From Bacteroidales bacterium (GTDB lineage: Bacteria; Bacteroidota; Bacteroidia; Bacteroidales; PWNQ01): a DNA stretch of 64,000 bases. The DNA lies in contig PWNQ01000041.1 in NCBI GenBank assembly GCA_003557725.1, positions 8,481 through 72,480 of the forward strand, read 5' to 3'. The notes below the pieces were generated by a model. That model was given only the letters and a program-made list of their open reading frames with translations, searched no databases and was not told the DNA's origin. Positions 5,093 through 34,374 of this stretch are shown here, piece by piece (within the stretch, counting starts at the first letter, position 1; every line of letters starts with the position of its first letter). A program made the translations under genes and the position numbers.

Positions 5093-5680
5093 GTGAACAG
5101 TGAAAAATTTAATATCTGCTTTCTTCGTTCTTACCCCTATGAGCCTACTCAGGATCAGGTAAAGGCCATATACATTCTATCCCGTTTTATTTTTACGCTC
5201 AGGGAGCGGCCGCTTTTTGTTCTTAAAGGGTATGCGGGAACGGGTAAAACGTCTATAGTCAGTACATTGGTTAAGGTTCTCCCTGTAGCCGGGCAGAAAT
5301 CCGTTTTGCTGGCACCTACAGGAAGGGCTGCTAAAGTGCTAAGCAGCTACTCCGGAAAGCCGGCAACCACTATTCATAAACGAATCTATTATACTGCACC
5401 AACCCCCGAGGGAGGGATGCAGGTAAGCCTTCAGGTCAACCGCTTTAAAGACACTATCTTTGTAGTGGACGAGGCATCCATGATCCATGATAACAGCCAT
5501 GAATCCGGCGGCTTTGAGGGAAGGAGTCTGCTGGATGACCTTATCCGCTTTGTTTATAATGGACCAAATTGCAAGCTGGTCCTTATCGGCGACGAAGCCC
5601 AGTTGCCTCCGGTAGGGGCAGAGCTTAGCCCTGCCCTGGATATGGAATGGCTTAAACGATCCTTTTCACTCACCGCATGA
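5093..5680 (+). CDS. RecD-like SF1 helicase, N-terminal fragment (Walker A domain), ends at an in-frame TGA
   Basis: GYAGTGKTS Walker A and VVDEASM Walker B (AAA_30-like). Ends at TGA 5678-5680, in the same frame as the next ORF. Confidence 0.7.
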   Translation: MNSEKFNICFLRSYPYEPTQDQVKAIYILSRFIFTLRERPLFVLKGYAGTGKTSIVSTLVKVLPVAGQKSVLLAPTGRAAKVLSSYSGKPATTIHKRIYYTAPTPEGGMQVSLQVNRFKDTIFVVDEASMIHDNSHESGGFEGRSLLDDLIRFVYNGPNCKLVLIGDEAQLPPVGAELSPALDMEWLKRSFSLTA

Positions 5681-6529
5681 ATGGCACAAATGAGGAATGT
5701 GGTCAGGCAGGCGAAGGAGTCGGGAATACTTATGAATGCTACCGGGTTGAGAGAAAAACTGGAGAACCAGGACGTGGAACTGCCCCTGTTTAACACACAA
5801 AACTATACCGATATTGAACGCGTACCCGGGTATGACCTGCAAGAAGTAATGGAGCAAGCATTTAACTCCCCGGACATGGCCAATGACGCAGTGATGATCA
5901 CCCGGTCCAACAAACGGGCCAATCGCTTTAACCAGGAAATTAGAACCCGAATTTTGTTCCGGGAAGAGCAAATTGATGCCGGCGACCGGCTAATGGTGGT
6001 GAAAAATAATTACTTTTGGCTGCAAGGACATGAGCAAGAGGAAGCTGGATTTATTGCCAACGGGGATATGATCCAGGTACTGAAAATTAACGGATACGAT
6101 ATGCATGCCGGATTCCGGTATGTGAATGCGGTTATACAAATGCTGGATTATCCCGCAATTAAGCCCTTTAATGTGATTATGCTTACAGATACCCTGGATT
6201 CACCGTCGGCAGCACTAACCCGGGAGCAGCAACTGGAGCGGTATAATGCCTTTATGGATGACCTGGACTATATACAATCCAAAGGGGAAAAAAGAAAAGT
6301 GCTCCGAAAAAACCCTATGTATAACGCCTTGCAAGTAAAGTTTGGCTATGCTTTAACTTGTCACAAAACACAGGGTGGACAGTGGAAGCATGTTTTTGTA
6401 GACCAGGGGTATATCACGGAAGATGCATTGGACCAAAATTACCTGAGGTGGTTGTATACGGCGGTGACACGGGCTACGGAAAAATTGTATCTGGTTAATT
6501 TCCGGGATGAGTTTTTTCCTGATGAATGA
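5681..6529 (+). CDS. RecD-like SF1 helicase, C-terminal fragment
   Basis: Starts at the ATG directly after the TGA. Carries helicase motifs: VVRQAKESGIL, the SF1 C-terminal motif ALTCHKTQGGQWKHVFV, and YTAVTRATEKLYL. Confidence 0.7.
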   Translation: MAQMRNVVRQAKESGILMNATGLREKLENQDVELPLFNTQNYTDIERVPGYDLQEVMEQAFNSPDMANDAVMITRSNKRANRFNQEIRTRILFREEQIDAGDRLMVVKNNYFWLQGHEQEEAGFIANGDMIQVLKINGYDMHAGFRYVNAVIQMLDYPAIKPFNVIMLTDTLDSPSAALTREQQLERYNAFMDDLDYIQSKGEKRKVLRKNPMYNALQVKFGYALTCHKTQGGQWKHVFVDQGYITEDALDQNYLRWLYTAVTRATEKLYLVNFRDEFFPDE

Positions 6530-7001
6530 GAACGGTCGCTTGTGCATGCATCCCTTCCTCACGTCCGATGAATCCTATTTGCTCTCCTGTTTTGGCTTTA
6601 ATATTGATCTGTTGGGGTGAGATCTTCAAATGACCTGCCAGGATATCCACCATATGGGGGATATGAGGAGCCAGCTTTGGCCTTTGGGCATGAATTGTAC
6701 AGTCCAGGTTTACGATGGAAAAGCCTGCGTGGTGCAACAGCGACATAACGGCTTGCATCATCACCGTGCTTTTTACATTTTTCCACCGGGGGTTGGTATC
6801 GGGGAAGTGTGTGCCGATATCTCCTTTTCCCATGGCCCCCAGCAAGGCGTCAATGATGGCATGAATGAGAATGTCTCCGTCGGAGTGGGCCTGGAATCCC
6901 TTGCTGTGACGGATGGTAACGCCGCCAATAACCAGAGGCAGCCCAGGCCGCAGCCGGTGAGTATCTGATCCAGTGCCGATACGCATCATAAGGGTGTTCA
7001 T
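6495..7001 (-). CDS. ispF: 2-C-methyl-D-erythritol 2,4-cyclodiphosphate synthase
   Basis: MRIGTGSDTHRL, HSDGDILIHAIIDALLGA, GDIGTHFPDT. The ATG at 6999-7001 overlaps the porV stop as TAATG. An alternative start is M6 at 6986. Confidence 0.9.
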   Translation of the reverse strand: MNTLMMRIGTGSDTHRLRPGLPLVIGGVTIRHSKGFQAHSDGDILIHAIIDALLGAMGKGDIGTHFPDTNPRWKNVKSTVMMQAVMSLLHHAGFSIVNLDCTIHAQRPKLAPHIPHMVDILAGHLKISPQQINIKAKTGEQIGFIGREEGMHAQATVLIHQEKTHPGN

Positions 7002-8197
7002 TAGCCTTCCCGTTGTTGGTTGGCAAACGCTTCAAAATCAAAAAGCATGGAAAAGCGAAGCGTGTTTTCCATGGGGTTACGTTGTTCTACAGGAACCAGA
7101 TAGGAGAAATCAATGCCAAACACATTATATTTAAAGCCAACGCCCAGAGTAAAATATTTCCGGTTTCCTTTGGTTTGGTGTTCATGAAAGTATCCTCCCC
7201 GGATGGCAAATTGCTGGTCGTACCAATATTCTACCCCTAACGATGCCGTAACCTCCCGGATCTCTTCTTCCAGTCCTCCCGGGGCATCCGAGAAAGAACC
7301 CAGCATTCCTGCTACCACTCCCCGGTCAGGGTCCTGCCCGCTCACTATAAAGTATTGGCCTGTGGCGGTATCATGGCCATATATGGGGGGTGTGGGAACC
7401 AGCAACTTGTTGAAATCAGCCATTACACTAATAGTGTTATGGCGGTCCAGTTCGGTGGTATATGCTGCACCTATGCGCATATTAATAGGGATAAAATCCC
7501 GTTCCAGAGTTTCCGAGTATGATATTTTGGCTCCAATGTTGGAGATATTCATGCCAAAGGCCAGCAGGCCACTACGATCAAAGATGTCCACATTGTCCTG
7601 GTAGTATACGGCAACATCGGCAGCTACCGATTGGCCCACTTGTGTTTCTGCTCCACCCACATATTGGCCGCTGGTGAGGTTGGAGTTGATGTAACGAACC
7701 GCAACGGCACCGCTCCAGTTTTCTGAGAACAAACGGGCATACGCCGCATCCAGAGCAAACTCACTGGGACGGTATTGACCGATATTTTCACCTACCCGGT
7801 TGGTAAAAGTGATCTCTCCAAGGGAAAAGTAGCGCAATGACATGGATAGCGTTTGCATATTATCCAAACGATAATATCCTGCCAGGTAAGAAAGGTTGAT
7901 GTCATCCACCAGGTTTCGCAACCAGGGGCTATACGATAATGAGATGCCCATTTCATCCTCCACAAATGCGTACTTTGCCGGGTTCCAGTGCTGGGAATTG
8001 GCATCCGGGGTGGAAGCTACCCCCGCATCTCCCATGGAGCCCGCGCGGGAATCGGGCGCAATCATTAAAAAGGGAACCGCTGTAGTGATGGTGTTGATAT
8101 TGTCTTCTTGTCCCAGGATTTGTCCAATAGTCTGGCCATATAATACTGAGGGTGCAGCCAGAGCGATTGACAGGATGGTAATGAGGGCTCTTTTCAT
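7001..8197 (-). CDS. porV: T9SS outer-membrane shuttle protein PorV (LptO)
   Basis: Signal peptide, then the PorV-type N-terminal motif TAVPFLMIAPDSRAGSMGDAGVASTPDANSQHWNPAKYAF. About 400-aa beta-barrel, directly downstream of porU. Confidence 0.85.
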   Translation of the reverse strand: MKRALITILSIALAAPSVLYGQTIGQILGQEDNINTITTAVPFLMIAPDSRAGSMGDAGVASTPDANSQHWNPAKYAFVEDEMGISLSYSPWLRNLVDDINLSYLAGYYRLDNMQTLSMSLRYFSLGEITFTNRVGENIGQYRPSEFALDAAYARLFSENWSGAVAVRYINSNLTSGQYVGGAETQVGQSVAADVAVYYQDNVDIFDRSGLLAFGMNISNIGAKISYSETLERDFIPINMRIGAAYTTELDRHNTISVMADFNKLLVPTPPIYGHDTATGQYFIVSGQDPDRGVVAGMLGSFSDAPGGLEEEIREVTASLGVEYWYDQQFAIRGGYFHEHQTKGNRKYFTLGVGFKYNVFGIDFSYLVPVEQRNPMENTLRFSMLFDFEAFANQQREG

Positions 8198-8330
8198 TTT
8201 TGTTGTCTGTTTAAATGCTTAATTGTCAGAAATTAAATAATTTTTCCAAGGGTAAAAAGTGCCATAACAGAATCTTTCATTTATTTATTACCTGACAAAA
8301 AATATTGCTTGCTTTGCTTTTTTTAAAGTG

Positions 8331-8338
8331 CAAAGATA
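8331..8338 (-). promoter_or_regulatory. Bacteroidota -7 promoter box TATCTTTG upstream of porV
   Basis: The reverse complement of caaagata is an exact match to the TAnnTTTG consensus and is followed by CAC. It lies 134 nt upstream of the porV ATG. Confidence 0.4.
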
Positions 8339-8355
8339 ACGCAATTTGCTATTTA

Positions 8356-10221
8356 TTATTGTGATTTATAGATGACCAATTTGCCACTTTGGCTTTTACT
8401 TATTCCTGAATCAGTGCGAATGGTGGCTCTGTATATATACATGCCTCCTTTTACAGGTGTTCCGGAAGCGCTTCGCCCGTTCCACTTTAGGGGGGACACG
8501 GAGTATCCGTCAGGAGCCACATCTGTTTCAAGGGTTTCTATAAGTTGCCCATCCAGGCTGTATATTTCAACCTGGAATGTCACTGTGCTCCGTGCCTGGT
8601 TATGGTCAAAGGTAAACCATACTTCCCCGTCGGAAGGGTTGGGGTAAGCGGTAAGGTTTTTCAGGGCCACCTCTTCAGAGTGTGTTACCACAAACTGGAT
8701 GGTGGCTTCATTGGAGTTATTATAGATATCCCACACCTTGAGGCGAAGTTGATGTTGTCCACGGGGAAGGTTATGAAAAGGGTAGCGGATGGTCCCCCGG
8801 GTAAAGTCATCCAGGTCTGCTTCATAATAGTCATTCAGCACAAACTGTTTCAGGGTGTTATCTTCAAGGATAAGCGTGGCAACAATATCATGGCCTATGC
8901 CACTGCCCACGGCATTGATGCCATGTTCATCAAAAACCCGGGCCAGTAATATGGGGTTTTGGTCGGTAATGCCTCCGGAGATAAAAGAAAAATCGTTCAT
9001 ATATAATTCGATACCTGGACCGGTGGTGTCAACAACGGCACTGTCGCTGGTTCCCCCAACAATGAAGTTATTATAATACCCGTTGGCATCACTCACTCCA
9101 TCCTCAGCATAATAGCTTATGCGCCCGTGACCATAATTATAGGAAATGTCTTTGGGCACAATAAATGAAAAAGTGAACCGGCCATCGGTAACACTGGCCT
9201 TGCCCTTAAAGAGAATATTGTCGTACTGTTCAAATTCAAAAGGGGAGCTGCCGGGGTCCTGTCCCATGGTGGTATGTCTGCTTTTTTTATCATAGACGGT
9301 AGGATAAAGGTAGCCATTAAAGCTGCTGTCAATGCTCCCGTCGTTCCGGGTGATCTTTCCTGAAACGGTAACGTGTGCCAATGCCTTTAAGGTGTCCGTA
9401 ATGCTGGTATCCAGTCCGTTGATGGAAGTGGTGACCACTTTTTTATCCGGGATGGCGATGGGCAGGGCAGGGTTTCCCAGTAAAACATAGTTGCGCAGAC
9501 CGGAAATGGAAGGGGCTTCCGTTTTGGTGAGGCGCATAATGTCCCCCATTCGGAGGTGGCTTCCCTTTTTTCTCCGGAAAAGGTTATTATAAAAGGCATT
9601 GGAAAAATTCATGTTATTGCCGGTGTGGGTAACTCGGGTAGAGGAGATCAGGGTGATGGGTCCGCCACCGGGTTGATGAAATGCAATCTCTCCAGCCGAT
9701 ATACGGGCCGGGTTATCAAAAGGAGAAAACTCGCAGGTGGCAGTAAAAATGATGGGCATGCTGTACGTATTAGACCAGTTGCGAATGTCCTGAATGCGCA
9801 ACACTTCTTCATGGGCCCAGCCCGCCGGCCCGCCATGCCCAAAATAGTGCATTACCAGGGCCCCCCTTTGCATCTGCTCATTTATGGCATTGTTCACGCC
9901 GGGATAACGTTGTCCCCCGGGGGTGGTGACTTGCTGATAGGCATCGAAATAAATCTTTCGCACATTGATCTCCGGCTGGTGGATGTTTAGCTTGTCTGCC
10001 AGTTGCTCTGCAGAAATAACATGAATATTATTGTCTTCATCATCTGCAACCAGGCACACCACATTGCGCCAGTCGGCCAGAGGCTTCTGCAGGGAAGGGT
10101 CCATACGGATATCCGCACTTATGGAAGCAGTATCCATATTCAGATATCGCCTCATCTTGGTGATGGCCTGACGGGCTTGTGATACCGTTCCCGCAGGAAT
10201 ACGCCCAACTCCAATGTCCAC
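8356..10221 (-). CDS. porU: T9SS C-terminal signal peptidase PorU, C-terminal fragment (downstream of the in-frame TAG)
   Basis: Same frame as ORF 10243-12249. Contains the second half of the C25-peptidase-like region (VGRIPAG, HYFGHGGPAGWAHE, FTATCEF) and a C-terminal CTD-like beta domain (LTAYPNPSDGEVWFTF...GMYIYRATI). Confidence 0.75.
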   Translation of the reverse strand: MDIGVGRIPAGTVSQARQAITKMRRYLNMDTASISADIRMDPSLQKPLADWRNVVCLVADDEDNNIHVISAEQLADKLNIHQPEINVRKIYFDAYQQVTTPGGQRYPGVNNAINEQMQRGALVMHYFGHGGPAGWAHEEVLRIQDIRNWSNTYSMPIIFTATCEFSPFDNPARISAGEIAFHQPGGGPITLISSTRVTHTGNNMNFSNAFYNNLFRRKKGSHLRMGDIMRLTKTEAPSISGLRNYVLLGNPALPIAIPDKKVVTTSINGLDTSITDTLKALAHVTVSGKITRNDGSIDSSFNGYLYPTVYDKKSRHTTMGQDPGSSPFEFEQYDNILFKGKASVTDGRFTFSFIVPKDISYNYGHGRISYYAEDGVSDANGYYNNFIVGGTSDSAVVDTTGPGIELYMNDFSFISGGITDQNPILLARVFDEHGINAVGSGIGHDIVATLILEDNTLKQFVLNDYYEADLDDFTRGTIRYPFHNLPRGQHQLRLKVWDIYNNSNEATIQFVVTHSEEVALKNLTAYPNPSDGEVWFTFDHNQARSTVTFQVEIYSLDGQLIETLETDVAPDGYSVSPLKWNGRSASGTPVKGGMYIYRATIRTDSGISKSQSGKLVIYKSQ

Positions 10222-10242
10222 GTTCCCACTGGCATTAGAACC

Positions 10243-12249
10243 CTACCCAGGGGCATATAAACCAAAAAAATCATCCGAAACAAAACTGCCTATGGGGGAA
10301 AGTGAACTGGAAGACTGAAAGGTAAGAATGGTGGCCTTATCATAATTGTTCCGGTTTTTTGGATCATAATTGCCGTCACCCAGCAGCAGCAGATACCCCG
10401 GCATTTCATCCGGAGTGGTAGCACGATCATAAAACATGCGCATGAAATTGCGGATGGCTGAGATATCTTGCTGGCCGGAGGAAAACTCATTGTAAATTTC
10501 TGAAGGAGTAACCACATGTACCACCATGTCGTCCATGTCTCTATGTAAATCAGCAATCTCCTCTGCAGGATCCAGCAGGTCGGGGTGGGTAACGATCACC
10601 ATTTCAGGTTGCGGAAGCCCGTGAAGGTTTTGATTCTTTACAGTGCCTGTATGGTGCGGGCTATGATAGCTGTTTTTATGTGCAATAAACTCCCGAAGGG
10701 TATCTGCAGATGCCACAAAGGAAAAGGTGCTTCCGGATACCTGTCCGTTAATTGCCTCAGGAAGCACCGGATTGGTAATATCCCAAACCTGTAAACCCGG
10801 TGATGCTCCGGAGATGGAGTACTGTGCGATATTGCCATCACCTGTGACTGAAACATCCCGGAACTGAAGTTGTTTGTTATTGAAAAACAGATTTTCACGG
10901 GCGTGAACCTGAATAAAATCCATCCAGCCAACGGCAGAGGGCTGAGGCTTTTGATAAGATACATTCATATTGATACTCCCCGGGCTGAGAGATAGTGAAA
11001 AAGTATCTGTCACACTTTGGGCATAAAGGGAGGTATAAGTATCGGTGATGGAACTAACCAAAAAGGTACGGGTGTTTCCCTGGATATCCACTTTAAAAGC
11101 AGAAGCTTGTGTAGATCTGGCTGCCATGGATACGCGAAACTTTACGGGGTGGGATGGATCCAGATCCGGAAAATAAAAAGGGTAGGCATAACTGGTGATG
11201 ATATCAAATACATCCCCGAAAAAGCGCCGCCCACTATTTAGCAGATTGATGGAATCCTTTTCGTGGAAACGGTAACTGTCATATGTGTGGGTGGTTACAT
11301 TGGGAGGCCCCGGAGCAGAAGGCTTTTGTGATATCCGCTTACCCGGGCTTTGGTTGTAGGTAAGATAGTAATACGCATGGTCGTCATATTCATGCTTATG
11401 GTGCAAAAAACGCTCCAGGTTTTCATCGTAGGTCCATTCTACAGGACCCTGGGCATAAAACAACAAGTAATCCCCCGGGCTAAAGGTCCCGGGAGTAGAC
11501 GTGGACACATAAATGGCATTTTCCAGCAGATCATCAGCATGAGGTTCTGAATTATTGTAGGGCAACTGATTCCCTCCATTTCCAAAAATCTGCAGTTGGG
11601 AAGGATCCAGGCCGGAAGCATCAATGCCATAGCCTTCCAGATCACCATAGGTGATTTGGTAAACCCCCGATTGGGATATCCGAAGCTTATGCCAGGGTCC
11701 TTTGGCCAGAACCGACTCATCCACATATTGATAGATATTGCGCTGGGCAACTATTTCATCCGGATTAAAAATAATCTGATAGCTGAAAGACTGTAATAGC
11801 TTAACCGAGTCGCCGCAAAGAGATAGCTTAGCGGGGGCAAGCATAAAATAACCAAAAGCTTGCTTGCGAATGGAGTGGGTTTCTGTAGTGAGCTGAATAC
11901 CATAGGTGAGCTCCTCAACTCCGCGGATGCTGGAGAAATGCTTAATGGGTATGGATTGAAATACCGTATCGCTTAGGATCACCTCCATGGAAAAATCGGA
12001 TGACGGCAGGGGAAGCCGCTCTGAATAGTAGGGAAGATGATGGTTGTCAAAGTCATAATCCGACCCCTTGAAGGATAATACATCAAATGAGGCCAGGGTA
12101 TCATCACCCGGAGTAATTGTTTTTACCGGGTCCCAGTTAAAAGATTTATAGGAAGCGTTTTGCCCGTGTAGAAAAAACGGAGCCAGGAAAAAGAAGGCAA
12201 ACAAAATAGCTGAGGTCCCAAATGCAGGGATATTGTTTTTTTCTCTCAT
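10243..12249 (-). CDS. porU: T9SS C-terminal signal peptidase PorU, N-terminal fragment (ends at the in-frame TAG 10243-10245)
   Basis: Signal peptide MREKNNIPAFGTSAILFAFFFLAPFFLHGQ. PorU-type N-terminal region and the start of the gingipain/C25-like domain (YLLLLGDGNYDPKN, SDDFFGL). Stop TAG is followed in frame by GSNASGNVDIGVGRIP. Confidence 0.75.
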   Translation of the reverse strand: MREKNNIPAFGTSAILFAFFFLAPFFLHGQNASYKSFNWDPVKTITPGDDTLASFDVLSFKGSDYDFDNHHLPYYSERLPLPSSDFSMEVILSDTVFQSIPIKHFSSIRGVEELTYGIQLTTETHSIRKQAFGYFMLAPAKLSLCGDSVKLLQSFSYQIIFNPDEIVAQRNIYQYVDESVLAKGPWHKLRISQSGVYQITYGDLEGYGIDASGLDPSQLQIFGNGGNQLPYNNSEPHADDLLENAIYVSTSTPGTFSPGDYLLFYAQGPVEWTYDENLERFLHHKHEYDDHAYYYLTYNQSPGKRISQKPSAPGPPNVTTHTYDSYRFHEKDSINLLNSGRRFFGDVFDIITSYAYPFYFPDLDPSHPVKFRVSMAARSTQASAFKVDIQGNTRTFLVSSITDTYTSLYAQSVTDTFSLSLSPGSINMNVSYQKPQPSAVGWMDFIQVHARENLFFNNKQLQFRDVSVTGDGNIAQYSISGASPGLQVWDITNPVLPEAINGQVSGSTFSFVASADTLREFIAHKNSYHSPHHTGTVKNQNLHGLPQPEMVIVTHPDLLDPAEEIADLHRDMDDMVVHVVTPSEIYNEFSSGQQDISAIRNFMRMFYDRATTPDEMPGYLLLLGDGNYDPKNRNNYDKATILTFQSSSSLSPIGSFVSDDFFGLYAPG

Positions 12250-12356
12250 GGTTCTGCTAATATTATGCCTGTGGTATTCAGGCGCAGATTAAAAAATACC
12301 TAAACCGGATGGTTGATAAATATAATATTTGCTGTAAAATTTCGGTTGTTATTATT

Positions 12357-12507
12357 GAGTCCAGTCTAAAAAGGTTACTTTTGATTTTCAGCGGCTTTTT
12401 GCCCCAGACCCTAAAGGGTGAAGCCGCTGAAAATCAGCCACCCTTTAGGGATGGGGCAAAGCTGATTTTCAGCGGATGTGAAAAATGTGTGTTTTTAGAC
12501 TGGACTC
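12357..12507. mobile_element. Complete copy of a MITE-like palindromic intergenic element (~151 bp)
   Basis: Perfect 16-bp terminal inverted repeats: GAGTCCAGTCTAAAAA (12357-12372) and TTTTTAGACTGGACTC (12492-12507). Flanked on both sides by ATTATT. The interior has a long hairpin (GCCCCagaCCCTAAAGGGTG / CACCCTTTAGGGatGGGGC) around CCGCTGAAAATCA, and TGATTTTCAGCGG occurs twice as its complement. Confidence 0.6.
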
Positions 12508-12766
12508 ATTATTTGATTTAATGGGTTGTTAACAATTGGCTGACGGTGCTGGTCAAACAGGAAACAACACCGGAGGTAGTCAGCGCTTAATAAAAAGCAA
12601 GATGTTAAAAAATGACTATTCTATTGTACCGGGTTGTGTCTGTATTTTGCACATTATACTAATAACCATCGAGACGGTTTTTTTATTGTATATCACTGAA
12701 AAAACCTGGTGGCAGCCTTTTTGTAACATTTTTGTTTGGGTGCAAGTATAAGTGAGATAAAATGCT

Positions 12767-15951: not shown

Positions 15952-17244
15952 ATGAAGGTGGGAAAACTGTATAATGCCTTTAAATTATCCACAGGAGTGT
16001 CTACCGATACCCGTGCTATCCGCAAAGGAAGCATGTTCTTTGCCCTCAAAGGGGAACGGTTTAATGGAAACCTATTTGTCGGGCAGGCTTTTGAAAATGG
16101 TGCCCAATATGCTGTGGTGGATGAAGCAAGGGGAGTGATCAATAACAACTGTATTAATGTAGACAGCTCTCTGGAAATGCTTCAAAAACTGGCCCAATAT
16201 CATCGGGCAAAGTATTCAGTACCCATGTTGGCCATCACCGGATCTAACGGAAAAACAACTACCAAAGAGCTAATCATAAGCATACTGAACAAAAAATTCA
16301 ACACCCACTACACCCGGGGAAATTTAAATAACCACATTGGATTGCCCCTTACTCTATTAGACCTCAATGAACACCACCATATTTCCGTGGTGGAGATGGG
16401 GGCCAACCATCAGGGAGAGATCGCACGACTGGCAGAATTGGCAGACCCGGATTATGGATTGATCACCAATATCGGGAAAGCCCACCTGGAGGGGTTTGGA
16501 GGAATTGAAGGAGTGATTAAAGGAAAAACCGAACTATTCCGCTGCCTTAAAGCCAAAAACAGACCCGTGTTTGTGGACGAAAAGGACCCAATACTCATTC
16601 AGCATAGCCAGGAAATGGTAAATATACCCTATGGAGCTCAATCATTACAGGTTGAGATGGTTAGTGAGTTCCCAACTTTGTCTTTTCAGTGGAAAAAAAA
16701 CTCAATAAACACCCATCTTGCCGGAAAGTACAACATGCAAAATATATGTGCAGCCATTGCAGTGGGTAATTACTTCAATGTGCCGGAAAAGGATATATGC
16801 AACGCGGTGGAATCTTATATTCCCCAGAATAGCCGCTCACAGGTGGTGAAACATAAACCAAACACCATTATTTTAGATGCATATAATGCAAACCCTACCA
16901 GTGTGGCTGCTGCTTTGGACAACCTCTACAGGTATCCTTCCAGCCATAAATCCAAAATGGCAGCTCTGGGAGACATGCTTGAACTGGGTGAAGAAAGTGA
17001 TAAGCACCACCAGGAGACTGTGAATGAGCTGAAAAGGTATGACTTTGACAGGGTGTTGCTGGTGGGGAGTTGCTTTTCCCGAGTTAAAGTCCCGGAAGAT
17101 TTTCATGTTTTTAATAATGTTGAGGAAGCCTCCCAATGGATCGAAGATCAGCCTGTGGAAGATTCTGTAATACTCATAAAAGGGTCCAGAGGGATTCGCA
17201 TGGAGAAGGTCTTTCATGCCATAACCGGGGAAAAGGATACGTAG
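15952..17244 (+). CDS. murF: UDP-N-acetylmuramoyl-tripeptide--D-alanyl-D-alanine ligase
   Basis: ITGSNGKTTTKE P-loop, VVEMGANHQGEI and DAYNANPTS motifs. Length is typical of the Mur ligase family. Confidence 0.9.
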   Translation: MKVGKLYNAFKLSTGVSTDTRAIRKGSMFFALKGERFNGNLFVGQAFENGAQYAVVDEARGVINNNCINVDSSLEMLQKLAQYHRAKYSVPMLAITGSNGKTTTKELIISILNKKFNTHYTRGNLNNHIGLPLTLLDLNEHHHISVVEMGANHQGEIARLAELADPDYGLITNIGKAHLEGFGGIEGVIKGKTELFRCLKAKNRPVFVDEKDPILIQHSQEMVNIPYGAQSLQVEMVSEFPTLSFQWKKNSINTHLAGKYNMQNICAAIAVGNYFNVPEKDICNAVESYIPQNSRSQVVKHKPNTIILDAYNANPTSVAAALDNLYRYPSSHKSKMAALGDMLELGEESDKHHQETVNELKRYDFDRVLLVGSCFSRVKVPEDFHVFNNVEEASQWIEDQPVEDSVILIKGSRGIRMEKVFHAITGEKDT

Positions 17245-18420: not shown

Positions 18421-18918
18421 TTATCTTCTGCGGCCTCCTCTTGGGCTGCCGTAGTCACAACCCCGACTGCCCGGCTTGTTGCCTCTTCCCATTCTGGATT
18501 TATTGCCTTGCCGGGAATCAAAAAACACCTGTTGCTCTTTGGTTAGCAGCTCACGGATTTGCTCCCGGTGCCGCAATGAACTTTTCATCATCTCTGCTTT
18601 TACTGCAGCCAACTCATCCGTTAGCGCTTCAGCCCTGGATGGGTTTCTGTTTTCTCCGGTGGTTAATGCACGGATTTCCATGCGTAGTTGGTCAACCCGG
18701 TTACGGTAGTTGGTGCGCTCTTCCATATGCACCAACCGTAAGGCACGGATCTTTTCCGTTTGCTCTTCCGATAAATCCGGAATATTCATGCATGTCCCCC
18801 GGGGTTCTCCGGAAAATGATGCTCCCTGGGGATTGCCTCGCTGTGCCATTGCGCTTACAGAGAATATCATGAGCGTTAGCAAGGTTAAAAATACTTTTGC
18901 TTTTGATTTCATAATCAT
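18421..18918 (-). CDS. Periplasmic Spy/CpxP-like (LTXXQ) stress protein
   Basis: Signal peptide. Helical protein with LSEEQ and LTKEQQ (LTXXQ-type) motifs and a basic G/R tail. Last gene of the ECF sigma operon. Confidence 0.6.
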   Translation of the reverse strand: MIMKSKAKVFLTLLTLMIFSVSAMAQRGNPQGASFSGEPRGTCMNIPDLSEEQTEKIRALRLVHMEERTNYRNRVDQLRMEIRALTTGENRNPSRAEALTDELAAVKAEMMKSSLRHREQIRELLTKEQQVFFDSRQGNKSRMGRGNKPGSRGCDYGSPRGGRRR

Positions 18919-18964
18919 ACTTTTTTTGAGGTTATTAAAATATTAGTGAGTTGGTTAATTCTGG

Positions 18965-19528
18965 TTACTGTTGTTTGGGTCTTTGGCTCCTTTGGTCATG
19001 GCGGTGTTTACGCCGGTCACCTTTACTTCTATTTTTATGCATGGCCGCACTCCGGAGAAATTCATTGACAGCTTCCACTTGTTGGGGGCTATTAGCCAAA
19101 TCTTTGATCTTCTGAAAGTGGTCCATAGTATGGATATGGATCTGGCTGTACAGGGTGCCAATCTCATGGGCATATTCATACACCTGTTCCTGATTTTCTT
19201 CATGGTTTGCTACCAGTTCAGTTTGCCTGGTTCTGAGTTGCCTGATGGAATCGGTGAGTCTTCTCATGATGGCATGGTGTTGGACCCTTAGCTCTTCCAT
19301 TTGTTGCATTTGTTCATCATCAAATCCAAAGCGGTTTTGAAGCCGGTCTGCCCTGTATGGCCTTTCCGACCGCAGGCTGTCCGTGGTGGGTTGAGGGGCG
19401 GTGACCTCCTCTATCTTAGTGGAAGGGCTGACCTTATCGTACAACAGGTAGCCGATCATCCCCAGGTTTAATATGGCCAGGATAATCACAAGGGCCAGTA
19501 ATAGTTGCTTTTGTCTGTATATTTCCAT
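18965..19528 (-). CDS. Membrane-anchored periplasmic helical protein (LTXXQ-like, heavy-metal-sensor-like)
   Basis: N-terminal TM helix LLLALVIILAILNLGMIGYLL. Helical body with FDDEQMQQMEELR. Lies in the operon between the anti-sigma gene and the Spy-like gene. Confidence 0.5.
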   Translation of the reverse strand: MEIYRQKQLLLALVIILAILNLGMIGYLLYDKVSPSTKIEEVTAPQPTTDSLRSERPYRADRLQNRFGFDDEQMQQMEELRVQHHAIMRRLTDSIRQLRTRQTELVANHEENQEQVYEYAHEIGTLYSQIHIHTMDHFQKIKDLANSPQQVEAVNEFLRSAAMHKNRSKGDRRKHRHDQRSQRPKQQ

Positions 19529-19532
19529 GAGT

Positions 19533-19970
19533 TTAGTGGGTTGCTGTTAAAAAATAATAGTCATTGTCTGCCAATTCTTCATCCAGTTCATGGAAGTAGC
19601 GTTCAAAAAAAGGCTCTTCTCCGGCATATTGCGTGGGTTGCTTCTGGCCGGAAGTATACAGTAGTGTAAGGGATGTGCTTGCGAGCATGAAAAGGATTAC
19701 TGCGGCAATACGACGGACAAAACTTATGAAGTGAAGGCTGTGCCTGACAGGGTATTTTTCGCCGGGCGGAAGGCTGGAAAGACGTTCAAAAAAGCCATCC
19801 GAAGGAGAAACGGGCTCTCCGGCCTGCTCATAAACCGGCTTGATCTTTTCCATCAGCGATTTGCAGGATGAGCACTGCCCCAAATGTGTCTCCAGACCCT
19901 CCTTTTCGCCAGGGGATATCTCCTGGTCCAGGTAGAATAACAGGTGTGTATGTACAAAATGGCAATTCAT
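19533..19970 (-). CDS. Anti-sigma factor (zf-HC2 type, single TM)
   Basis: Starting at ATG 19968-19970: MNCHFVHTHLLFYLDQEISPGEKEGLETHLGQCSSCKSL (H-x3-C-x2-C zinc motif) with a TM helix AAVILFMLASTSLTLL. Directly downstream of the ECF sigma gene. Confidence 0.65.
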   Translation of the reverse strand: MNCHFVHTHLLFYLDQEISPGEKEGLETHLGQCSSCKSLMEKIKPVYEQAGEPVSPSDGFFERLSSLPPGEKYPVRHSLHFISFVRRIAAVILFMLASTSLTLLYTSGQKQPTQYAGEEPFFERYFHELDEELADNDYYFLTATH

Positions 19971-20018
19971 AGTTGATAGGTTATATAGGTATGACAATAA
20001 CAATGAATAAAACTTGCT

Positions 20019-20582
20019 CTAAGTGGTGTAATAGTGGATCAATTTTTTCTGAAGGTTTATTTTTGCCCTGTGAATCAATGACTCTACGGAAGAAAGGGAG
20101 GTGTTCATCACCTGTGCTATTTCTTTATAGGGCAGCCCGTCATATTTATGCAGGATAAATGCCGTCTTTTGCAACTCCGGGAGGGTATCCATAGCGGTAT
20201 GCAGAATATGGCGTCTTTCCAGGTTTTCGCTGATGGCATCCGGGCTCTTTGCATGACCCCACATGGTTCTTTCCCCCCCGGGTATTAGTGAACCGGAAAG
20301 CTGTTCCCTTTTTTTATTCTTTTTAAGCTGGTTAATGGATTTATTTACGGTGATCCGGTATAGCCAGGTAGAAACGCTTGAGTCTCCCCTGAATTTATTA
20401 ATGGAATGGAATGCCTCCAGGAACACTTCCTGTGTCAGGTCTTCAGCGTCTGTGCGGTTATTAAAAAACCCAAAAGCAGTTGAATAGACCATTTGGCCAT
20501 AAGTCTTTACAAGTGTGGCATATGCTTTTTCATCACCCTGTTGCAGGGCGTGGATCAATTCTCCCGGGGCTTGCATAATCAA
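20019..20582 (-). CDS. ECF-type RNA polymerase sigma-70 factor
   Basis: Region 2 (DAEDLTQEVFLEAF, STWLYRITVNKSIN) and region 4 (YKEIAQVMNTSLSSVESLIHRAK). Confidence 0.9.
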   Translation of the reverse strand: MIMQAPGELIHALQQGDEKAYATLVKTYGQMVYSTAFGFFNNRTDAEDLTQEVFLEAFHSINKFRGDSSVSTWLYRITVNKSINQLKKNKKREQLSGSLIPGGERTMWGHAKSPDAISENLERRHILHTAMDTLPELQKTAFILHKYDGLPYKEIAQVMNTSLSSVESLIHRAKINLQKKLIHYYTT

Positions 20583-21336: not shown

Positions 21337-21681
21337 ATGTTACGCATATTGTTAAAGTCCATGCTCCTGTTTATTATTTGCTTGCCACTGGTTACATACA
21401 CCGCTTGCAATGCCACACGGCAATCCAGTAGTGCCAGGGAGAAAACAGAGCAAAGACAAAGGGAGCAGGCCGAGAGGCAGAGGCAGGAGTATCAGGAGCG
21501 AAAAGAGAGACACCTGGAAATTCAAAGCGATGATTCCCGGGCACGAATGAAAGACATGCAGAAAAAATCGGAGCGGTATAACTATAATAAGAAGCGATTT
21601 TTTCTGGCCCGCTGGTGGGATCAGGTGGTCCATAAAATACGGATAAGGCAGGGAAGAAGGCCGCAAAGAGGACATTTATAG
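21337..21681 (+). CDS. Small charged lipoprotein (hypothetical)
   Basis: Lipobox VTYTAC followed by an E/R/Q-rich helical region. Ends 19 nt before the sensor kinase gene, so it is probably co-transcribed. Confidence 0.5.
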   Translation: MLRILLKSMLLFIICLPLVTYTACNATRQSSSAREKTEQRQREQAERQRQEYQERKERHLEIQSDDSRARMKDMQKKSERYNYNKKRFFLARWWDQVVHKIRIRQGRRPQRGHL

Positions 21682-26533: not shown

Positions 26534-29500
26534 ATGTTTCGAAAGTTAATGACAGTAGTTGTCCTGTTATTCGCCACATTTTATTGGGCGTATGGACAAT
26601 CAGGAGCCTTAAGAGGTAAAGTAATCGATGCCGAAACAGGAGAACCGGTACCTTTTGCCAACGTAGTAGTTGAGGCAGGAGGAAGTCAGGCCGGTGGAGC
26701 CACTTCAGACTATGATGGGAACTATACCATCAGGCCCCTTTCTCCGGGAAGGTACGATGTGAAAGCGTCTTACGTAGGATATAAGCCGTTGATGATACGT
26801 GGTGTGATCATTAATGCCGACCAGGTGCGCTTTATGGATATAGAAATGGAGCCCACCGCGGAAACCCTGGAAACCTTTGAAGTGAGGGACTACAGGGTGC
26901 CCCTTATTGATAAAGACCAGACTACCACCGGAGAAACCGTAACACGGGAAGACATTGCCAAGCTGCCCGGACGGTCTGCCACTGCTGTGGCCGCTACTGT
27001 GGGGGGTGTGTTCTCACAGGATGGAGAAATGGGAAGCATCCGGGGAGCACGGTCTGAAGGAACGGTAATGTATATCGATGGAGTAAGGGTTAGAGGAACT
27101 TCATCCGTACCACAGTCGGCCCTGGAGCAAGTCTCTGTTATTACCGGAGGAACCCCGGCACAATACGGCGATGCAACCGGGGGGATCGTTAACATTACCA
27201 CCAGAGGCCCTTCCCGGCAATTCGGAGGTGGAGGAGAACTGATTACCTCTCAATTCCTGGATAACTGGGGCTATAATATGCTCGGATTTAATGTCCAGGG
27301 CCCGATCCTCAGAGATAAAGAAACCGAAAGATCATTGCTGGGCTTTATGCTTACCGGTGAGGTGAGCTACCAGGAAGACCCCAGACCGTTTGCCGTACCT
27401 TACCACCAGGCCACGGATGAAAGAATTGAGTACCTGGAAAACAACCCCTTCCGGCCTACGGGCACAGGGTTTGGCGCTTTTTACAATGCCACTTATACCC
27501 GTATGGAAGACCTGGAAGCCACCAGAACAAAACAATATGCTGAAAATTACTCCATCAACCTCAACGCCAAAGTTGACGTGGGACTGGATTTAAACACCAA
27601 CCTTACATTTGGCGGGTCTATGCACCACCGGGGCGGATATAACTGGAGTATGGCCAATGCCATGTTCAACGCCGGAAATAACGGAGTGTATGAAGATAAT
27701 ACCTACAGATTCTATGGCCGCTTTACCCAAAGATTCCCCACCGACCGCGACAGCCCTTCGCTGATACGCGATGTGAACTATACCATTCAGGCCGACTTCT
27801 CCCATTATGACCGCGTATTACAGGACCGTGACCACCAGGATAACTTGTTCAACTACGGATATATTGGAGATTATAAAACCTATAAAGTGAATTCCTTCGA
27901 GCGGGGCGATGACACTATCCTGGGATTCTCCGACGTATGGATACATAATGGATTTAGAGATACCCTGGTAACTTTTACCCCCGGAGATGTTAATGAGCAA
28001 ATAGCTGCTTATACATCTGATTATTACAACCTCTACGACCTGCACTCCGGAATGTACTCCAATAAAGTGCTGATCCAGCAGGGACAAGGCCTCCTTAACG
28101 GAATGAACCCCCAGTCGGTGTATGGGCTCTATACCAATGTGGGATCCCCATACGGGTCTTATCAGAAAATCCAAAACCAGCAATACAGTATTAATGCCAG
28201 TGGCTCGGCAGGCATCGGGAACCATGAGATTCGTTTTGGCCTTTTGTACGAGCAGCGCATTGACCGGGCCATTACTTATAACGCAACCGGCTTGTGGAGG
28301 TTGATGCAGCAGGTGACCAACCGGCATATCGAACAGTTGGACCTGAATAACCCCATCGCTGTGTATGACGCCTATGGCGTTTTCCAGGATACGGTAATGT
28401 ACAACCGCTTGTATGATGAGGGATTCCAGACGGCTTTTGATGCTGCAGTTAGAGAAAAACTGGGACTGCCGGTGGACGGACTGGACTGGATTGACGTGGA
28501 CAACCTGGACCCCTCATTCTACTCCATAGATATGTTCAGCGCCGATGAGTTGCTGAATGCCGGAGACCAGTACGTAAACTACTATGGGTACGACCACACC
28601 GGAGAGACCTATGGAACCCGACCCAGCTTTGAAGAGTTTTTTACAGCCACTGATGAGAACGGAAACTTTACCAGACCCATCGCCCCTTTTGAACCCATTT
28701 ATATGGCCGGATATATCCAGGATCGCTTTACTTTTGATGACCTGGTATTTAATATAGGAATAAGGGTGGACCGCTATGACGCCAACCAGAAAGTGCTCAA
28801 AGACCCATTCCTCCTGTATGAAGCAAGAACCGTTGGCGAAGTGGATGACCTGGGACCACACCCGGGGAACATGGGCGATGATTATGTGGTGTATGTGGAT
28901 GACTACAACAACCCTAACGCTATTCTGGGATATCGTAGCGGAATGGAATGGTTTGATGCACAGGGCACTTCAGTGCAGAACCCTTCTTCTATTGAAGCCG
29001 GAACAGGAATTAACCCCTATCTGGTTAACCCCGATCAAACCGCAATCAATGCCAGTGCATTCGAAGATTATGATCCTCAGGTAACGGTAATGCCCAGAAT
29101 CTCATTTTCTTTCCCAATATCCAGAGAGGCTCTGTTCTTTGCTCATTATGATGTACTTACCAAGCGACCCACCTCAGGGGCACGACTGGATATCCTGGAC
29201 TACTACTTTATTGAAAGCCGGGGGCAAAGCACCCTTAACAACCCTAACCTGAAGCCGGAAAGAACCACCGATTACGAGGTAGGATTCCAGCAAGTTCTGG
29301 GGCCCACTTCTTCTCTTAAGCTTTCTGCCTATTACCGGGAGATGAGAGATATGGTTCAGGCCTTCCCATTTACCGGAGCTTATCCTGTTCCTTATATTTC
29401 TTACAGCAACATGGACTTTGGTACCGTTAAAGGACTAACGGTTGCTTATGACCTGCGAAGAACGCGCAACATGCGCCTGAGAGCAAACTATACACTGCAG

Positions 29501-30163
29501 TTTGCTGATGGAACCGGCTCTTCTGCCACCACTTCCCTCTCACTGATTCGCGCGGGACAGCCCAACCTTAGAACCACCAACCCGCTGAGTTTTGACCGTC
29601 GTCATGCCGTCAACGTGGTGGCCGATTATCGATTCAGAGGAGGAACCGATTATGACGGTCCATCCATTAGCAGAACCGTTGTGGATGACGATGGAGAACG
29701 CAGAGTAAGAACATACCGAATCCTGGAAAATACGGGAATAAACCTCACCATGAGAGGCGGGTCAGGAACACCTTATACAGCCCACTCTCAAATTTATTCT
29801 GCCGTACTGGGTGGCGGAGCTCAATTGATCGATGGATCTATAGGCGGTTCCAGACTCCCGTGGTCATTCTCTATGGATGCACGCATTGACAGGGATATCC
29901 AACTGGGCGAAGAGGGAAGAACCCACCTGAATATCTACCTTACTGTTCTTAATGTGCTGGACAATAAAAATGTACTCAACGTATACAGCGCTACCGGAAG
30001 CCCCGATGATGATGGATTCCTTGCAGCTCCTGAATTTCAGCAACAAATTGCATCTCAAAACGACCCACAGGCCTTTTATGACCTGTACACAACGCGCATT
30101 CAAAGCCCGTATAACTACAGCCTGCCCAGAAGGATCAGACTGGGTGTAGCGTTCAATTTTTAA
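26534..30163 (+). CDS. TonB-dependent-receptor-like outer-membrane barrel with an N-terminal carboxypeptidase-regulatory-like domain (1209 aa)
   Basis: Signal peptide. CarboxypepD_reg-like region (GKVIDAETGEPVPFANVVV...DGNYTI). Plug region (TVTREDIAKLPGRSATAVAATVGGV, IRGARSEGTVMYIDGVRV, AQYGDATGGIVNITTRGP). Long barrel ending in RLGVAFNF with a terminal Phe. Confidence 0.85.
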   Translation: MFRKLMTVVVLLFATFYWAYGQSGALRGKVIDAETGEPVPFANVVVEAGGSQAGGATSDYDGNYTIRPLSPGRYDVKASYVGYKPLMIRGVIINADQVRFMDIEMEPTAETLETFEVRDYRVPLIDKDQTTTGETVTREDIAKLPGRSATAVAATVGGVFSQDGEMGSIRGARSEGTVMYIDGVRVRGTSSVPQSALEQVSVITGGTPAQYGDATGGIVNITTRGPSRQFGGGGELITSQFLDNWGYNMLGFNVQGPILRDKETERSLLGFMLTGEVSYQEDPRPFAVPYHQATDERIEYLENNPFRPTGTGFGAFYNATYTRMEDLEATRTKQYAENYSINLNAKVDVGLDLNTNLTFGGSMHHRGGYNWSMANAMFNAGNNGVYEDNTYRFYGRFTQRFPTDRDSPSLIRDVNYTIQADFSHYDRVLQDRDHQDNLFNYGYIGDYKTYKVNSFERGDDTILGFSDVWIHNGFRDTLVTFTPGDVNEQIAAYTSDYYNLYDLHSGMYSNKVLIQQGQGLLNGMNPQSVYGLYTNVGSPYGSYQKIQNQQYSINASGSAGIGNHEIRFGLLYEQRIDRAITYNATGLWRLMQQVTNRHIEQLDLNNPIAVYDAYGVFQDTVMYNRLYDEGFQTAFDAAVREKLGLPVDGLDWIDVDNLDPSFYSIDMFSADELLNAGDQYVNYYGYDHTGETYGTRPSFEEFFTATDENGNFTRPIAPFEPIYMAGYIQDRFTFDDLVFNIGIRVDRYDANQKVLKDPFLLYEARTVGEVDDLGPHPGNMGDDYVVYVDDYNNPNAILGYRSGMEWFDAQGTSVQNPSSIEAGTGINPYLVNPDQTAINASAFEDYDPQVTVMPRISFSFPISREALFFAHYDVLTKRPTSGARLDILDYYFIESRGQSTLNNPNLKPERTTDYEVGFQQVLGPTSSLKLSAYYREMRDMVQAFPFTGAYPVPYISYSNMDFGTVKGLTVAYDLRRTRNMRLRANYTLQFADGTGSSATTSLSLIRAGQPNLRTTNPLSFDRRHAVNVVADYRFRGGTDYDGPSISRTVVDDDGERRVRTYRILENTGINLTMRGGSGTPYTAHSQIYSAVLGGGAQLIDGSIGGSRLPWSFSMDARIDRDIQLGEEGRTHLNIYLTVLNVLDNKNVLNVYSATGSPDDDGFLAAPEFQQQIASQNDPQAFYDLYTTRIQSPYNYSLPRRIRLGVAFNF

Positions 30164-30195
30164 ACCAAGTTAATAACATAAAACGCCATAAAGAT

Positions 30196-33100
30196 ATGAG
30201 TTACTTATTAAGAATTTCAGTATTGGCCATTATTGCCGTGCTGATGCTTCCCCAAGACGGACTGGCATACAAAGTCCCGCGTGATAAGGAGAGGACGCCC
30301 AATAAACAACAAAAAAGCGTTGCCTCCGCCGGATGCCTTCCCGGGACTGCACATATAGACTTGGACATTAACAACGTTCGTGCAAGGATTAACCAAAGTG
30401 GAGATATGTGGTGGGACCTGCAGGGTAACCCACGATATGAGGTGCCCAAAGGTTCAGGAAAACACTCCATGTTCTCCGCCGCCCTTTGGATGGCCGGAGT
30501 GGATGTAAATGGGCAATTGAAAGCCGCCGCACAGAGATACCGGGGGTCGGGAGTGGACTTCTGGCCGGGACCCCTATCTACGGATGGGAAGGCCACGGTG
30601 GACGCTGAAACATGTAAAGCCTACGACCGCCACTGGGTTATGACAAGAGCCATGGTGGAAGAGTTCCTGGCCTGGAGAGATGACCCGGACGAATTCCCGG
30701 AATATGTTATCCCACAGGAAATATTGAACTACCCGGCTCACGGTGACGTGTCAAAAAATCAAGCCTATTATCTGGCTCCTTTTTATGATTATACCGGTGA
30801 CGGAACTTATGACCCTACATCCGGAGACTATCCATACTATGACTTCGATAACGAACTGTGTAAAAACTATGTCCCTACCATGGAAGGAAATGGTATCCTG
30901 GAAGACCAGGTGCTTAAAGGGGACCAGACCATCTGGTGGGTGTTTAACGACAGAGGAAACGTACATGCTGAAACAGAAGCTGCACCTATAGGTGTGGAAA
31001 TCCGGGCTCAGGCGTTTGCTTTTCTTACCAACGATGAGATCAACAACTCTACATTTTATTCTTACGAGATCATTAACCGCTCTACCCATCGGCTCACCAA
31101 TACCTATTTTAGCCAGTGGGTGGATATGGATATTGGAGACCCTTATGACGACTATGTGGGCTGTGATGTGGGCCGTGGACTGGGGTATGCCTATAACGGG
31201 GAAGCTGTTGATGGTAGTGGCGGACCTAATCACTATGGAGCACAGCCACCGGCTATTGGGGTAGACTTTTTTCAGGGACCATATATAGACCCTGACGGAC
31301 TGGATAACCCAAGATTTCAGAGAGTTATTTCCTATGATATAGATACTGTCATTGTGGGAGTGGACACCATTCTGGATACATTAAGCATTGATACTGTTTC
31401 CAGGCAAATTGTTGACGCCAGCATCAATGGCGTGAACTTCGCCGATGGTATTGTGGACAATGAGCGATTTGGAATGCGCAGGTTCGTTTACCATAACAAT
31501 GTTGGTGGAGGTACCAACCCAGCTATGACTGACCCCCAGACCGGCAGTGAATACTATCAATTGCTCCGGGGAATCTGGAAAGATGGTACCCGAATGCTTT
31601 ATGGTGGTAATGCCCACCAGAACTCAGGTGCCTATGGCCCTGAGTGTGACTTTATGTTTCCCGGAGATACCGATCCGTGGAACTGGGGTACCGGAGGACA
31701 ACCACCTAATGGACCAACCTACTGGACCGAAGAGACAGCAGGGAATGTTCCTTACGACCGCCGGTTTATGCAATCTGCCGGACCATTTACCCTGGAAGCC
31801 GGTGCAGTGAATTACATCACTGTGGGTATTCCATGGGCAAGAGCTTCTTCCGGAGGCCCATTCGCCTCTGTGGAACTGCTCAGGGAAATTGATGATAAAC
31901 TCCAACGATTGTTTGATAACTGCTTCCAGGTAATGGATGGCCCGGATGCACCGGACCTGACCATTAGAGAAATGGACAGAAAACTGATCCTGTATCTTTC
32001 CAACAGGCCCACTTCAAATAACTACAAAGAGCAGTACGAAGAGTGGGATCCCACCATTATTACTCCGGACAGCATTACCGATGATTCTCTCAGGTATGAC
32101 TCCATGTATCGCTTTGAGGGATATCAGATTTTCCAGCTAAGAGATGCCTCAGTGTCTGTCACCGACATCCGTGACCCCGACCTGGCCCGGGAAGTGGCAC
32201 AAGTGGATATTAAAAACGGAGTGGGACAACTGGTTAATTTTGAGAGAAGCCAACGTCTGGATGCCAATGTGCCTATGGAAATGGTGATGGGCGGCGATGA
32301 AGGCATCAAGCACTCGTTTGTTATTACGGAAGACGCTTTTGCTTCCGGGGACAGAAGACTGGTTAACCACAAAAAATATTATTTCGTAGCTATTGCCTAT
32401 GCATATAACGAATATATGCCGTATTCACAGGAGCCCGGGGTTGTTAATGGTCTCTATGGCCAGCAGCAACCATACCTGGCAGGGCGAAAGGGTGCTACAG
32501 GAGCCATTACCCCGGTTACTGCGATCCCCCATCTCGTCCAACCTGAAAGAGGCGGAACGGAAGTGCGCTCTGAGTACGGAGACGGGCCTATGATTACCAG
32601 AATAGAAGGACAAGGTAACGGAGGGTTGAACCTTCAGCTTACCGAGGAAAGTATCCAGGAGATACTGAACTCTCCACAACACAGGACTAAGCATCCAGTG
32701 TATGAACATGGAAAGGGACCCATTGATGTGAAAGTAGTTGACCCCGTTCGAGTAAAACCGGGCAATTATACCCTGATGCTCACAGTGAGTAACGACAGCA
32801 TTGACTACGCCGGATGGGTGCTGCTCAACACCAATGACCTTACAGATACCATCGCAGTTAGTCAGCATACCATTGATATTAATAATGAACAGCTATTGCT
32901 GGACTTAGGTCTGTCCATTACCATTAACCAGGTAGGGAAACCAGGCGATGCTAACCTGCAGAACAGCGGCGTAATCACCTCTTCCATCAGCTTTGCTGAC
33001 AGCTCTAAGCGCTGGCTCTCCGGCGTACCCAATAACGATGCCTCCATAGCCCTTAACTGGATCCGGTCAGGTACCATGGACGACCCCGCAAATCAGGATA

Positions 33101-34263: not shown

Positions 34264-34374
34264 GGATATATGGCACGTGAGCCCGGAAGGGTGCTAACAC
34301 CATTTTGGCTACAGCACTTTTCCGGGTTCATAAAACCAACAACTAATTATGAATACCAGACAAAATTCAGAACA

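Follow-up and report, generated by a model that had tools for sequence, protein, structure and literature searches.

An in-frame TAG in the type IX secretion sortase gene porU of a deposited Bacteroidales contig and its absence from an independent assembly of the same strain

[quoted passage not shown] On the minus strand, 12249..8356 forms a single reading frame of 1297 sense codons by translation, with an ATG at 12249 and a terminal stop at 8358..8356. The TAG at 10245..10243 is codon 669 and the sole internal stop of this frame, and there is no frameshift (minus-strand context: GGT TTA TAT GCC CCT GGG TAG GGT TCT AAT GCC). The finder of open reading frames (ORFs) reports two ORFs, 10243..12249 (668 aa) and 8356..10221 (621 aa); the start of the latter is only the first GTG (10221), eight codons past the TAG, and the porU frame is already open right after the stop. 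According to the cluster look-up, the two halves are also held at NCBI as separate proteins of 668 and 621 aa, on a contig of 72,536 bp. An earlier note, made from the sequence alone, had claimed that both ORFs lie in the same frame and form one PorU-like protein of about 1300 aa, that nothing other than a single in-frame TAG separates them, and that conservation continues on both sides of it; translation and the family matches given below agree with all three statements. The features of the gene are as follows.

8356..12249, minus strand: porU, long form, 1297 sense codons and an internal TAG, deposited as two proteins (translation; NF033707; the same 3894 nt as in contig L001 of the nearest other species)
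10243..10245, minus strand: internal TAG, codon 669, ancestral GAG (Glu) of a conserved G-E-G motif (sequence; contigs L001, L002 and L083; 77/81 homologs)
12163..12249, minus strand: Sec-type signal peptide, residues 1-29 (...FFLHG/QN), on the upstream piece only (translation read by eye)
11776..12207, minus strand: N-terminal domain of long-form PorU, residues 15-158 (NF052318 T9SS_sortase_N, 44.5 bits, cut-off 40)
9460..10602, minus strand: Peptidase C25 catalytic domain, residues 550-930, which the TAG interrupts about one third of the way in (PF01364)
9835..9837, minus strand: catalytic His805, GHGG motif (alignment to P. gingivalis PorU, PDB 6ZA2)
9733..9735, minus strand: catalytic Cys839 of the ATC motif, counterpart of Cys690 in P. 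gingivalis PorU (alignment to 6ZA2)
9634..9636, minus strand: conserved sortase-like Arg872, counterpart of Arg722 in P. gingivalis PorU (alignment to 6ZA2)
8404..8646, minus strand: C-terminal T9SS sorting domain of PorU (TIGR04183, 25.5 bits, cut-off 23; aligns to the C-terminal domain of 6ZA2)

The NCBIfam equivalog domain for PorU (NF033707, cut-off 420 bits) matches the upstream piece over model positions 1-482 (504 bits) and the downstream piece over positions 492-1094 (746 bits). Pfam Peptidase_C25 (PF01364, model length 374) is divided in the same way, with positions 1-113 on the upstream and 122-373 on the downstream piece. Since the matches to both models are split across the TAG, the two pieces are one gene and not chance in-frame neighbours. 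Both pieces also align to the structure 6ZA2 (chain residues 21-531 and 555-1153, respectively), and phmmer against P. gingivalis PorU gives E-values of 1e-94 (downstream half) and 3e-43 (upstream half). His805, Cys839, Arg872 and the C-terminal domain are all located on the downstream piece, whereas the signal peptide is found on the upstream piece only. Arg872 lies 33 residues past Cys839, aligned with Arg722 of P. gingivalis PorU, which has been described as conserved; in the same protein, replacement of Cys690 by Ala abolishes cleavage activity (PMC4560394). The window protein thus resembles P. gingivalis PorU (PG0026 / PGN_0022) in its C25-type domain, the His of GHGG and the Cys of ATC, a conserved Arg about 32 residues past the Cys, a retained C-terminal T9SS domain and porV directly downstream. 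It differs in length (1297 vs 1158 aa), being a long form with the extra N-terminal domain NF052318, in its distant sequence similarity, and in the stop at codon 669 of the window contig.

The gene is an ordinary long-form PorU in a conserved porP / gldJ / murF <> porU-porV-ispF neighbourhood. An intact porV lies directly 3' of it at a distance of 158 bp, and porP/sprF and gldJ are found on the opposite side of porU from porV.

7001..8197, minus strand: porV, intact (NF033710, 512 bits; protein identical in the same-strain contig L083)

Of 82 related loci, the flanking sequence retrieved around porU (up to 10 kb) contains porV in 66, ispF in 63, porP in 61 and murF in 60.

The closest homolog of the full-length protein (P0001) shows 76% amino-acid identity and has exactly 1297 aa. 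Its gene, found on the Logan contigs L001 and L002, is 3894 nt long, aligns with the window gene without indels, and has GAG as codon 669. This nearest other species has the same gene order (murF-gldJ-porP <> porU-porV-ispF-helicase-tamL); it differs from the window in the GAG of porU and in a one-piece helicase gene, with GGA where the window has TGA. All of the 119 homologs listed by the protein search are PorU-like, nearly all are about 1000-1400 aa long, and none is a half-gene starting or ending at the TAG junction. Glu occupies the G-E-G motif column in 77 of 81 homologs. Given this column and the GAG of the relatives, the event was a single G-to-T change at the first position of codon 669; the alignment of PorU orthologs, a check that the earlier note had put forward, thus returns GAG (Glu) as the ancestral codon.

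Codon differences from the nearest relative are 207 synonymous and 185 non-synonymous in the upstream half, and 223 and 122 in the downstream half. Change is mostly synonymous in both halves, and porU was therefore under selection over its full length until very recently. Conserved columns of PorU are deviated from at 18 of 185 positions in the window and at 15 of 185 in the relative. A decaying or long-standing pseudogene was considered and rejected on the basis of one substitution and no indels over 3894 nt, the synonymous excess in both halves, and conserved columns kept as in the relative. The species was also sought in other collections: no hit of the protein search exceeded 76% identity, the best PorU match among species-representative genomes was 62-66%, and exact-pattern scans of JGI metagenomes over the TAG junction gave no match.

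An exact look-up of PorV led to sequence of the same strain. The Logan contig SRR490128_337110 (L083, 5508 bp) corresponds to window positions 12381..6874 with two mismatches (99.964% identity). PorV is identical on this contig and porU has the same length of 3894 nt, but codon 669 is GAG (Glu) and codon 461 is GTT (Val) against CTT (Leu) in the window; the called PorU (P0121) is intact, with 1297 aa. The signal-like N-terminus (read by eye) and the TIGR04183 domain, which are parted by the TAG in the window contig, belong here to one product. Because this same-strain contig has GAG and an intact PorU, the TAG is private to the deposited contig. According to the cluster look-up, the intact form is known only from the Logan assembly, and the NCBI record has the two halves. 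Four further contigs belong to the same strain. Three of these are 100% identical to the window: L084 (4516 bp), L085 (2351 bp) and L086 (JGI metagenome 3300000563, 1584 bp, with contig names beginning SL_3KL_010_SED). The fourth, L087 (6006 bp), has two mismatches, both in leuS. The strain is thus found in run SRR490128, for which a literature search gave no match, and in the JGI metagenome, whose contig names resemble those of the Siberian soda-lake sediment metagenomes; the window may come from that study. The soda-lake genome bins were assembled with MEGAHIT from Illumina HiSeq 2000 reads (PMC6146748). Besides the TAG, the differences are the following.

10869, minus strand: Leu/Val difference in porU, codon 461 CTT (window) and GTT (L083) (contig comparison)
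42539, minus strand: Lys/Gln difference in leuS, codon 536 AAA (window) and CAA (L087), polarity ambiguous (contig comparison)
43215, minus strand: synonymous difference in leuS, codon 310 GGA (window) and GGC (L087) (contig comparison)

At porU codon 461 Leu is the family consensus, so the window is ancestral and the Val of L083 derived. The column of leuS codon 536 is variable: 36 of 60 homologs have Lys, the nearest has His, and the polarity is ambiguous. In total, the independent same-strain contigs differ from the window at four positions over 18.4 kb; all four are transversions, three of them of the A/C or G/T type, and in three of the four the variant base stands directly after GG. A preceding GG is a known context for Illumina miscalls.

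A second private stop, which the earlier note did not contain, is found 4.6 kb from the porU TAG.

5678..5680, plus strand: in-frame TGA in the RecD2/PIF1-like helicase gene 5093..6529, giving 195 + 282 aa; ancestral GGA (Gly) (homolog comparison)

As in porU, the change is G-to-T on the sense strand (GGA to TGA). In the nearest relative the codon is GGA (Gly), the 11 closest helicase homologs read LTAGM, and every listed homolog is one-piece; an ATG, for the conserved Met, follows the TGA immediately. Exact look-ups with the 668-aa half of PorU, ispF, tamL (two starts), the 282-aa helicase half, gldJ and a guessed partial ispF product gave no match, which leaves the helicase TGA without independent same-strain sequence. 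Other same-frame stop junctions were examined as candidate split genes and rejected: all except that of the helicase part unrelated genes or sit in non-coding frames.

The porU TAG is probably an artefact or a minority allele in the deposited contig. Codon 669 would read TAG for GAG through one G-to-T, either as a base-call or consensus artefact or as a minority read variant chosen by the assembler, and the T would be one of several unselected transversion differences spread over the contig. We infer that most copies in the source sample do not carry the T, which would be an artefact or a minor allele there. The organism would then make a normal one-piece PorU that is exported by Sec, crosses the T9SS via its own C-terminal domain, is then held by PorV, and cleaves the C-terminal domains of cargo with the His805/Cys839 dyad.

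The kind of differences seen is consistent with this reading. A random G:C-to-T:A change in the coding sequence of the window creates a stop in 8.5% of cases, compared with 4.2% for all substitutions. Extrapolation from the Logan comparison gives about 10 differences of the A/C-G/T type per 64 kb, which would yield about one stop and is compatible with two. Two stops among about 14 estimated differences, with no transition among those seen, look like changes unfiltered by selection, although numbers are small and subject to ascertainment bias; the proportion appears far above what would be expected of natural polymorphism filtered by selection. Such an unfiltered pattern would point to base-call or consensus artefacts or to very young mutations, and not to ordinary standing polymorphism. 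Several points weigh against an artefact or minority allele. The comparison is one between assembled contigs. The deposited contig is 72.5 kb long whereas the Logan contigs measure 2-6 kb, so that it may derive from deeper or different data, in which consensus errors are less likely. The transversion statistics come from only four to five sites, in a region that was singled out by its stops. Also, position 10869 is ancestral in the window and derived in the Logan contig, and the polarity of 42539 is ambiguous; the differences are therefore not all window errors and could reflect two real haplotypes.

The last point bears on another explanation, which we regard as possible but less likely: porU-E669stop (G to T) may be a real, very recent loss-of-function allele of the strain or population from which the deposited contig derives. 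Only a secreted 668-aa fragment without the catalytic residues would then be made, and the C-terminal domains of cargo would stay unprocessed by PorU. The TAG is present in the deposited record, with both halves called as separate proteins, and two assemblies 2e-4 per base apart, one difference being derived in the Logan contig, could be two natural haplotypes. The helicase stop (G196stop) may be on the same haplotype, which could belong, for instance, to a sub-lineage whose repair of oxidised guanine is defective. G:C-to-T:A change, the type of both stops, is the hallmark of that defect. Loss of porU is tolerated elsewhere: its deletion in C. hutchinsonii causes no growth defect but impairs cellulose use and gliding (PMC11611037), and in F. 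johnsoniae gliding is unaffected by it (PMC8564354). In P. gingivalis, inactivation of PorU blocks cargo processing (PMC4560394). Mutations of T9SS and gliding genes are common in phage-resistant Flavobacterium (bioRxiv 10.1101/2020.10.02.323337; PMC9804748), and the variant may likewise have been selected through phage pressure or surface-protein loss. With porU loss tolerated and T9SS mutants selected by phage, a porU-null sub-lineage is plausible, but as a known kind of event. A real TAG would resemble the spontaneous Flavobacterium T9SS/gliding loss-of-function mutants, including the phage-selected ones, in that a point mutation has disabled one component of the T9SS in some members of a population; those, however, are cultured isolates with phenotypes, whereas here there is one contig, contradicted by an independent assembly.

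The allele is missing from that same-strain assembly, the rest of porU shows no decay, and porV, porP and gldJ are intact. Conserved columns in the window proteins are deviated from at 70 of 884 positions, against 75 of 884 in the nearest relative, so there is no excess, in a test of low power that covers about 4% of the window. A difference set that consists entirely of transversions and is rich in nonsense changes is also unusual in natural polymorphism. A more elaborate version of the real allele is unlikely: a natural sediment population of an uncultured Bacteroidales bacterium with a sub-lineage that carries both porU E669stop and RecD2-like helicase G196stop by G:C-to-T:A change, is defective in oxidised-guanine repair, and has lost the T9SS sortase while keeping the remaining system. 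Phage pressure might maintain such a sub-lineage, or it might live off neighbours whose surface enzymes are still on display.

Sequencing or assembly error and very recent inactivating mutation are two of the four explanations that the earlier note had offered, and both survive; the other two, a two-piece PorU and low-level readthrough, do not. That anything programmed (readthrough, a two-piece enzyme or recoding) operates here is very improbable. In functional readthrough, a suppressor or near-cognate tRNA would decode a real TAG and full-length PorU would be made at a reduced level. The frame and all downstream functional motifs are indeed intact past the TAG, and spontaneous readthrough of UAG occurs at a low level in all bacteria. 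The TAG is unconserved, however, the same strain and the nearest relative both having GAG, and the base after it is G, which is not a leaky context. The RNA of the 141 nt around and after the TAG folds no better than shuffled sequence (z = -0.14), no tRNA gene was found within the 64-kb window, and an Rfam scan of the window gave no match. TAG also ends 10 window genes at positions matching their homologs. Programmed readthrough is thus unsupported, and we give it a very small chance.

For a two-piece PorU, the 668-aa product and one of about 621 aa, restarted at the GTG (10221), would have to assemble into an active enzyme. That GTG permits a restart, but the downstream piece starts with MDIGVGRIPAGTVSQARQ... 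(MDIGVGRIPAG...) and has no signal peptide, so that only the upstream piece would be exported and the downstream one retained in the cytoplasm, and the break falls within the C25 catalytic fold, between positions 113 and 122 of the 374-position Pfam model. The one-piece porU of the same strain and the lack of junction half-genes among the listed homologs also count against such an enzyme, which is extremely improbable.

The smallest probability of all, close to nil, falls to reassignment of TAG in this organism, through pyrrolysine or a changed genetic code, for which the only point is the in-frame TAG of porU itself. In a six-frame scan of the window this is the sole TAG inside a gene (about 50 genes); the other same-frame TAG junctions part unrelated genes (sigma factor/anti-sigma, nitroreductase, greA, and a 114-aa ORF beside a histidine kinase). 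Gene ends in the window use TAA 27 times, TGA 11 times and TAG 10 times, the last including the ends of murF (17242-17244) and of the ORF ending at 21681, which the earlier note had correctly taken as normal stops, and of eight other genes. The ancestral Glu codon is also just one base change from TAG. The porU TAG shares with decoded in-frame ambers (pyrrolysine; TAG-recoded phages) its position within a conserved gene; it differs from them in being unconserved, with no second case in about 50 genes, normal TAG stops and no decoding machinery in the window. Taken together, the normal TAG stops, the lack of a tRNA gene or RNA structure, and a downstream piece without a signal peptide make recoding, programmed readthrough and a two-piece enzyme very unlikely.

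The main relevance of the case is to quality control. In the deposited record a normal PorU (668 + 621 aa) and a helicase (195 + 282 aa) are each split in two, and automatic surveys would then count the genome as lacking a complete T9SS sortase, whereas the independent assembly shows that the strain has an intact porU. If the allele is true, it would be a modest case of natural loss of a T9SS component, with no new mechanism.

As regards other T9SS components, the earlier note had listed PorV, PorP/SprF, GldJ and cargo bearing the C-terminal domain in the same window; the first three are present, and cargo is weakly supported, by one sub-threshold match (20.1 bits) besides the C-terminal domain of PorU itself. 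This match belongs to the second of three successive genes at 26534-35436 (plus strand), a protein of 1355 aa without a Pfam family, whose last ~90 residues are weakly like PorZ / T9SS C-terminal domains. No second porU was found among the window ORFs scanned, and the 1355-aa protein matches neither PorU nor PorU2. The first gene of the three encodes a TonB-dependent-receptor-like protein of 1209 aa with a CarboxypepD_reg domain, and the third a 388-aa outer-membrane protein of the PorV/PorQ family; the trio may be a T9SS cargo-plus-anchor module.

Between porU and porP, a palindromic element of about 160 bp is located at 12353-12511; inverted repeats of 20 nt (TATTGAGTCCAGTCTAAAAA) form its ends, and nested hairpins lie inside. 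The first ~45 nt of the element occur again at 1040-1085, and it has no Rfam match. The contig L083 ends within it (at 12381), as expected of a multi-copy repeat. A cluster on the minus strand (18421-20582) contains an ECF sigma factor, a zf-HC2 anti-sigma factor, a 187-aa protein without a known family and a Metal_resist/LTXXQ periplasmic protein; it is kept in the nearest relative and is 100% identical in the same-strain contig L084. On the plus strand, 52413-58535 encodes a bacterial alpha-2-macroglobulin-like protein of 2040 aa with MG2, A2M and bMG10 domains.

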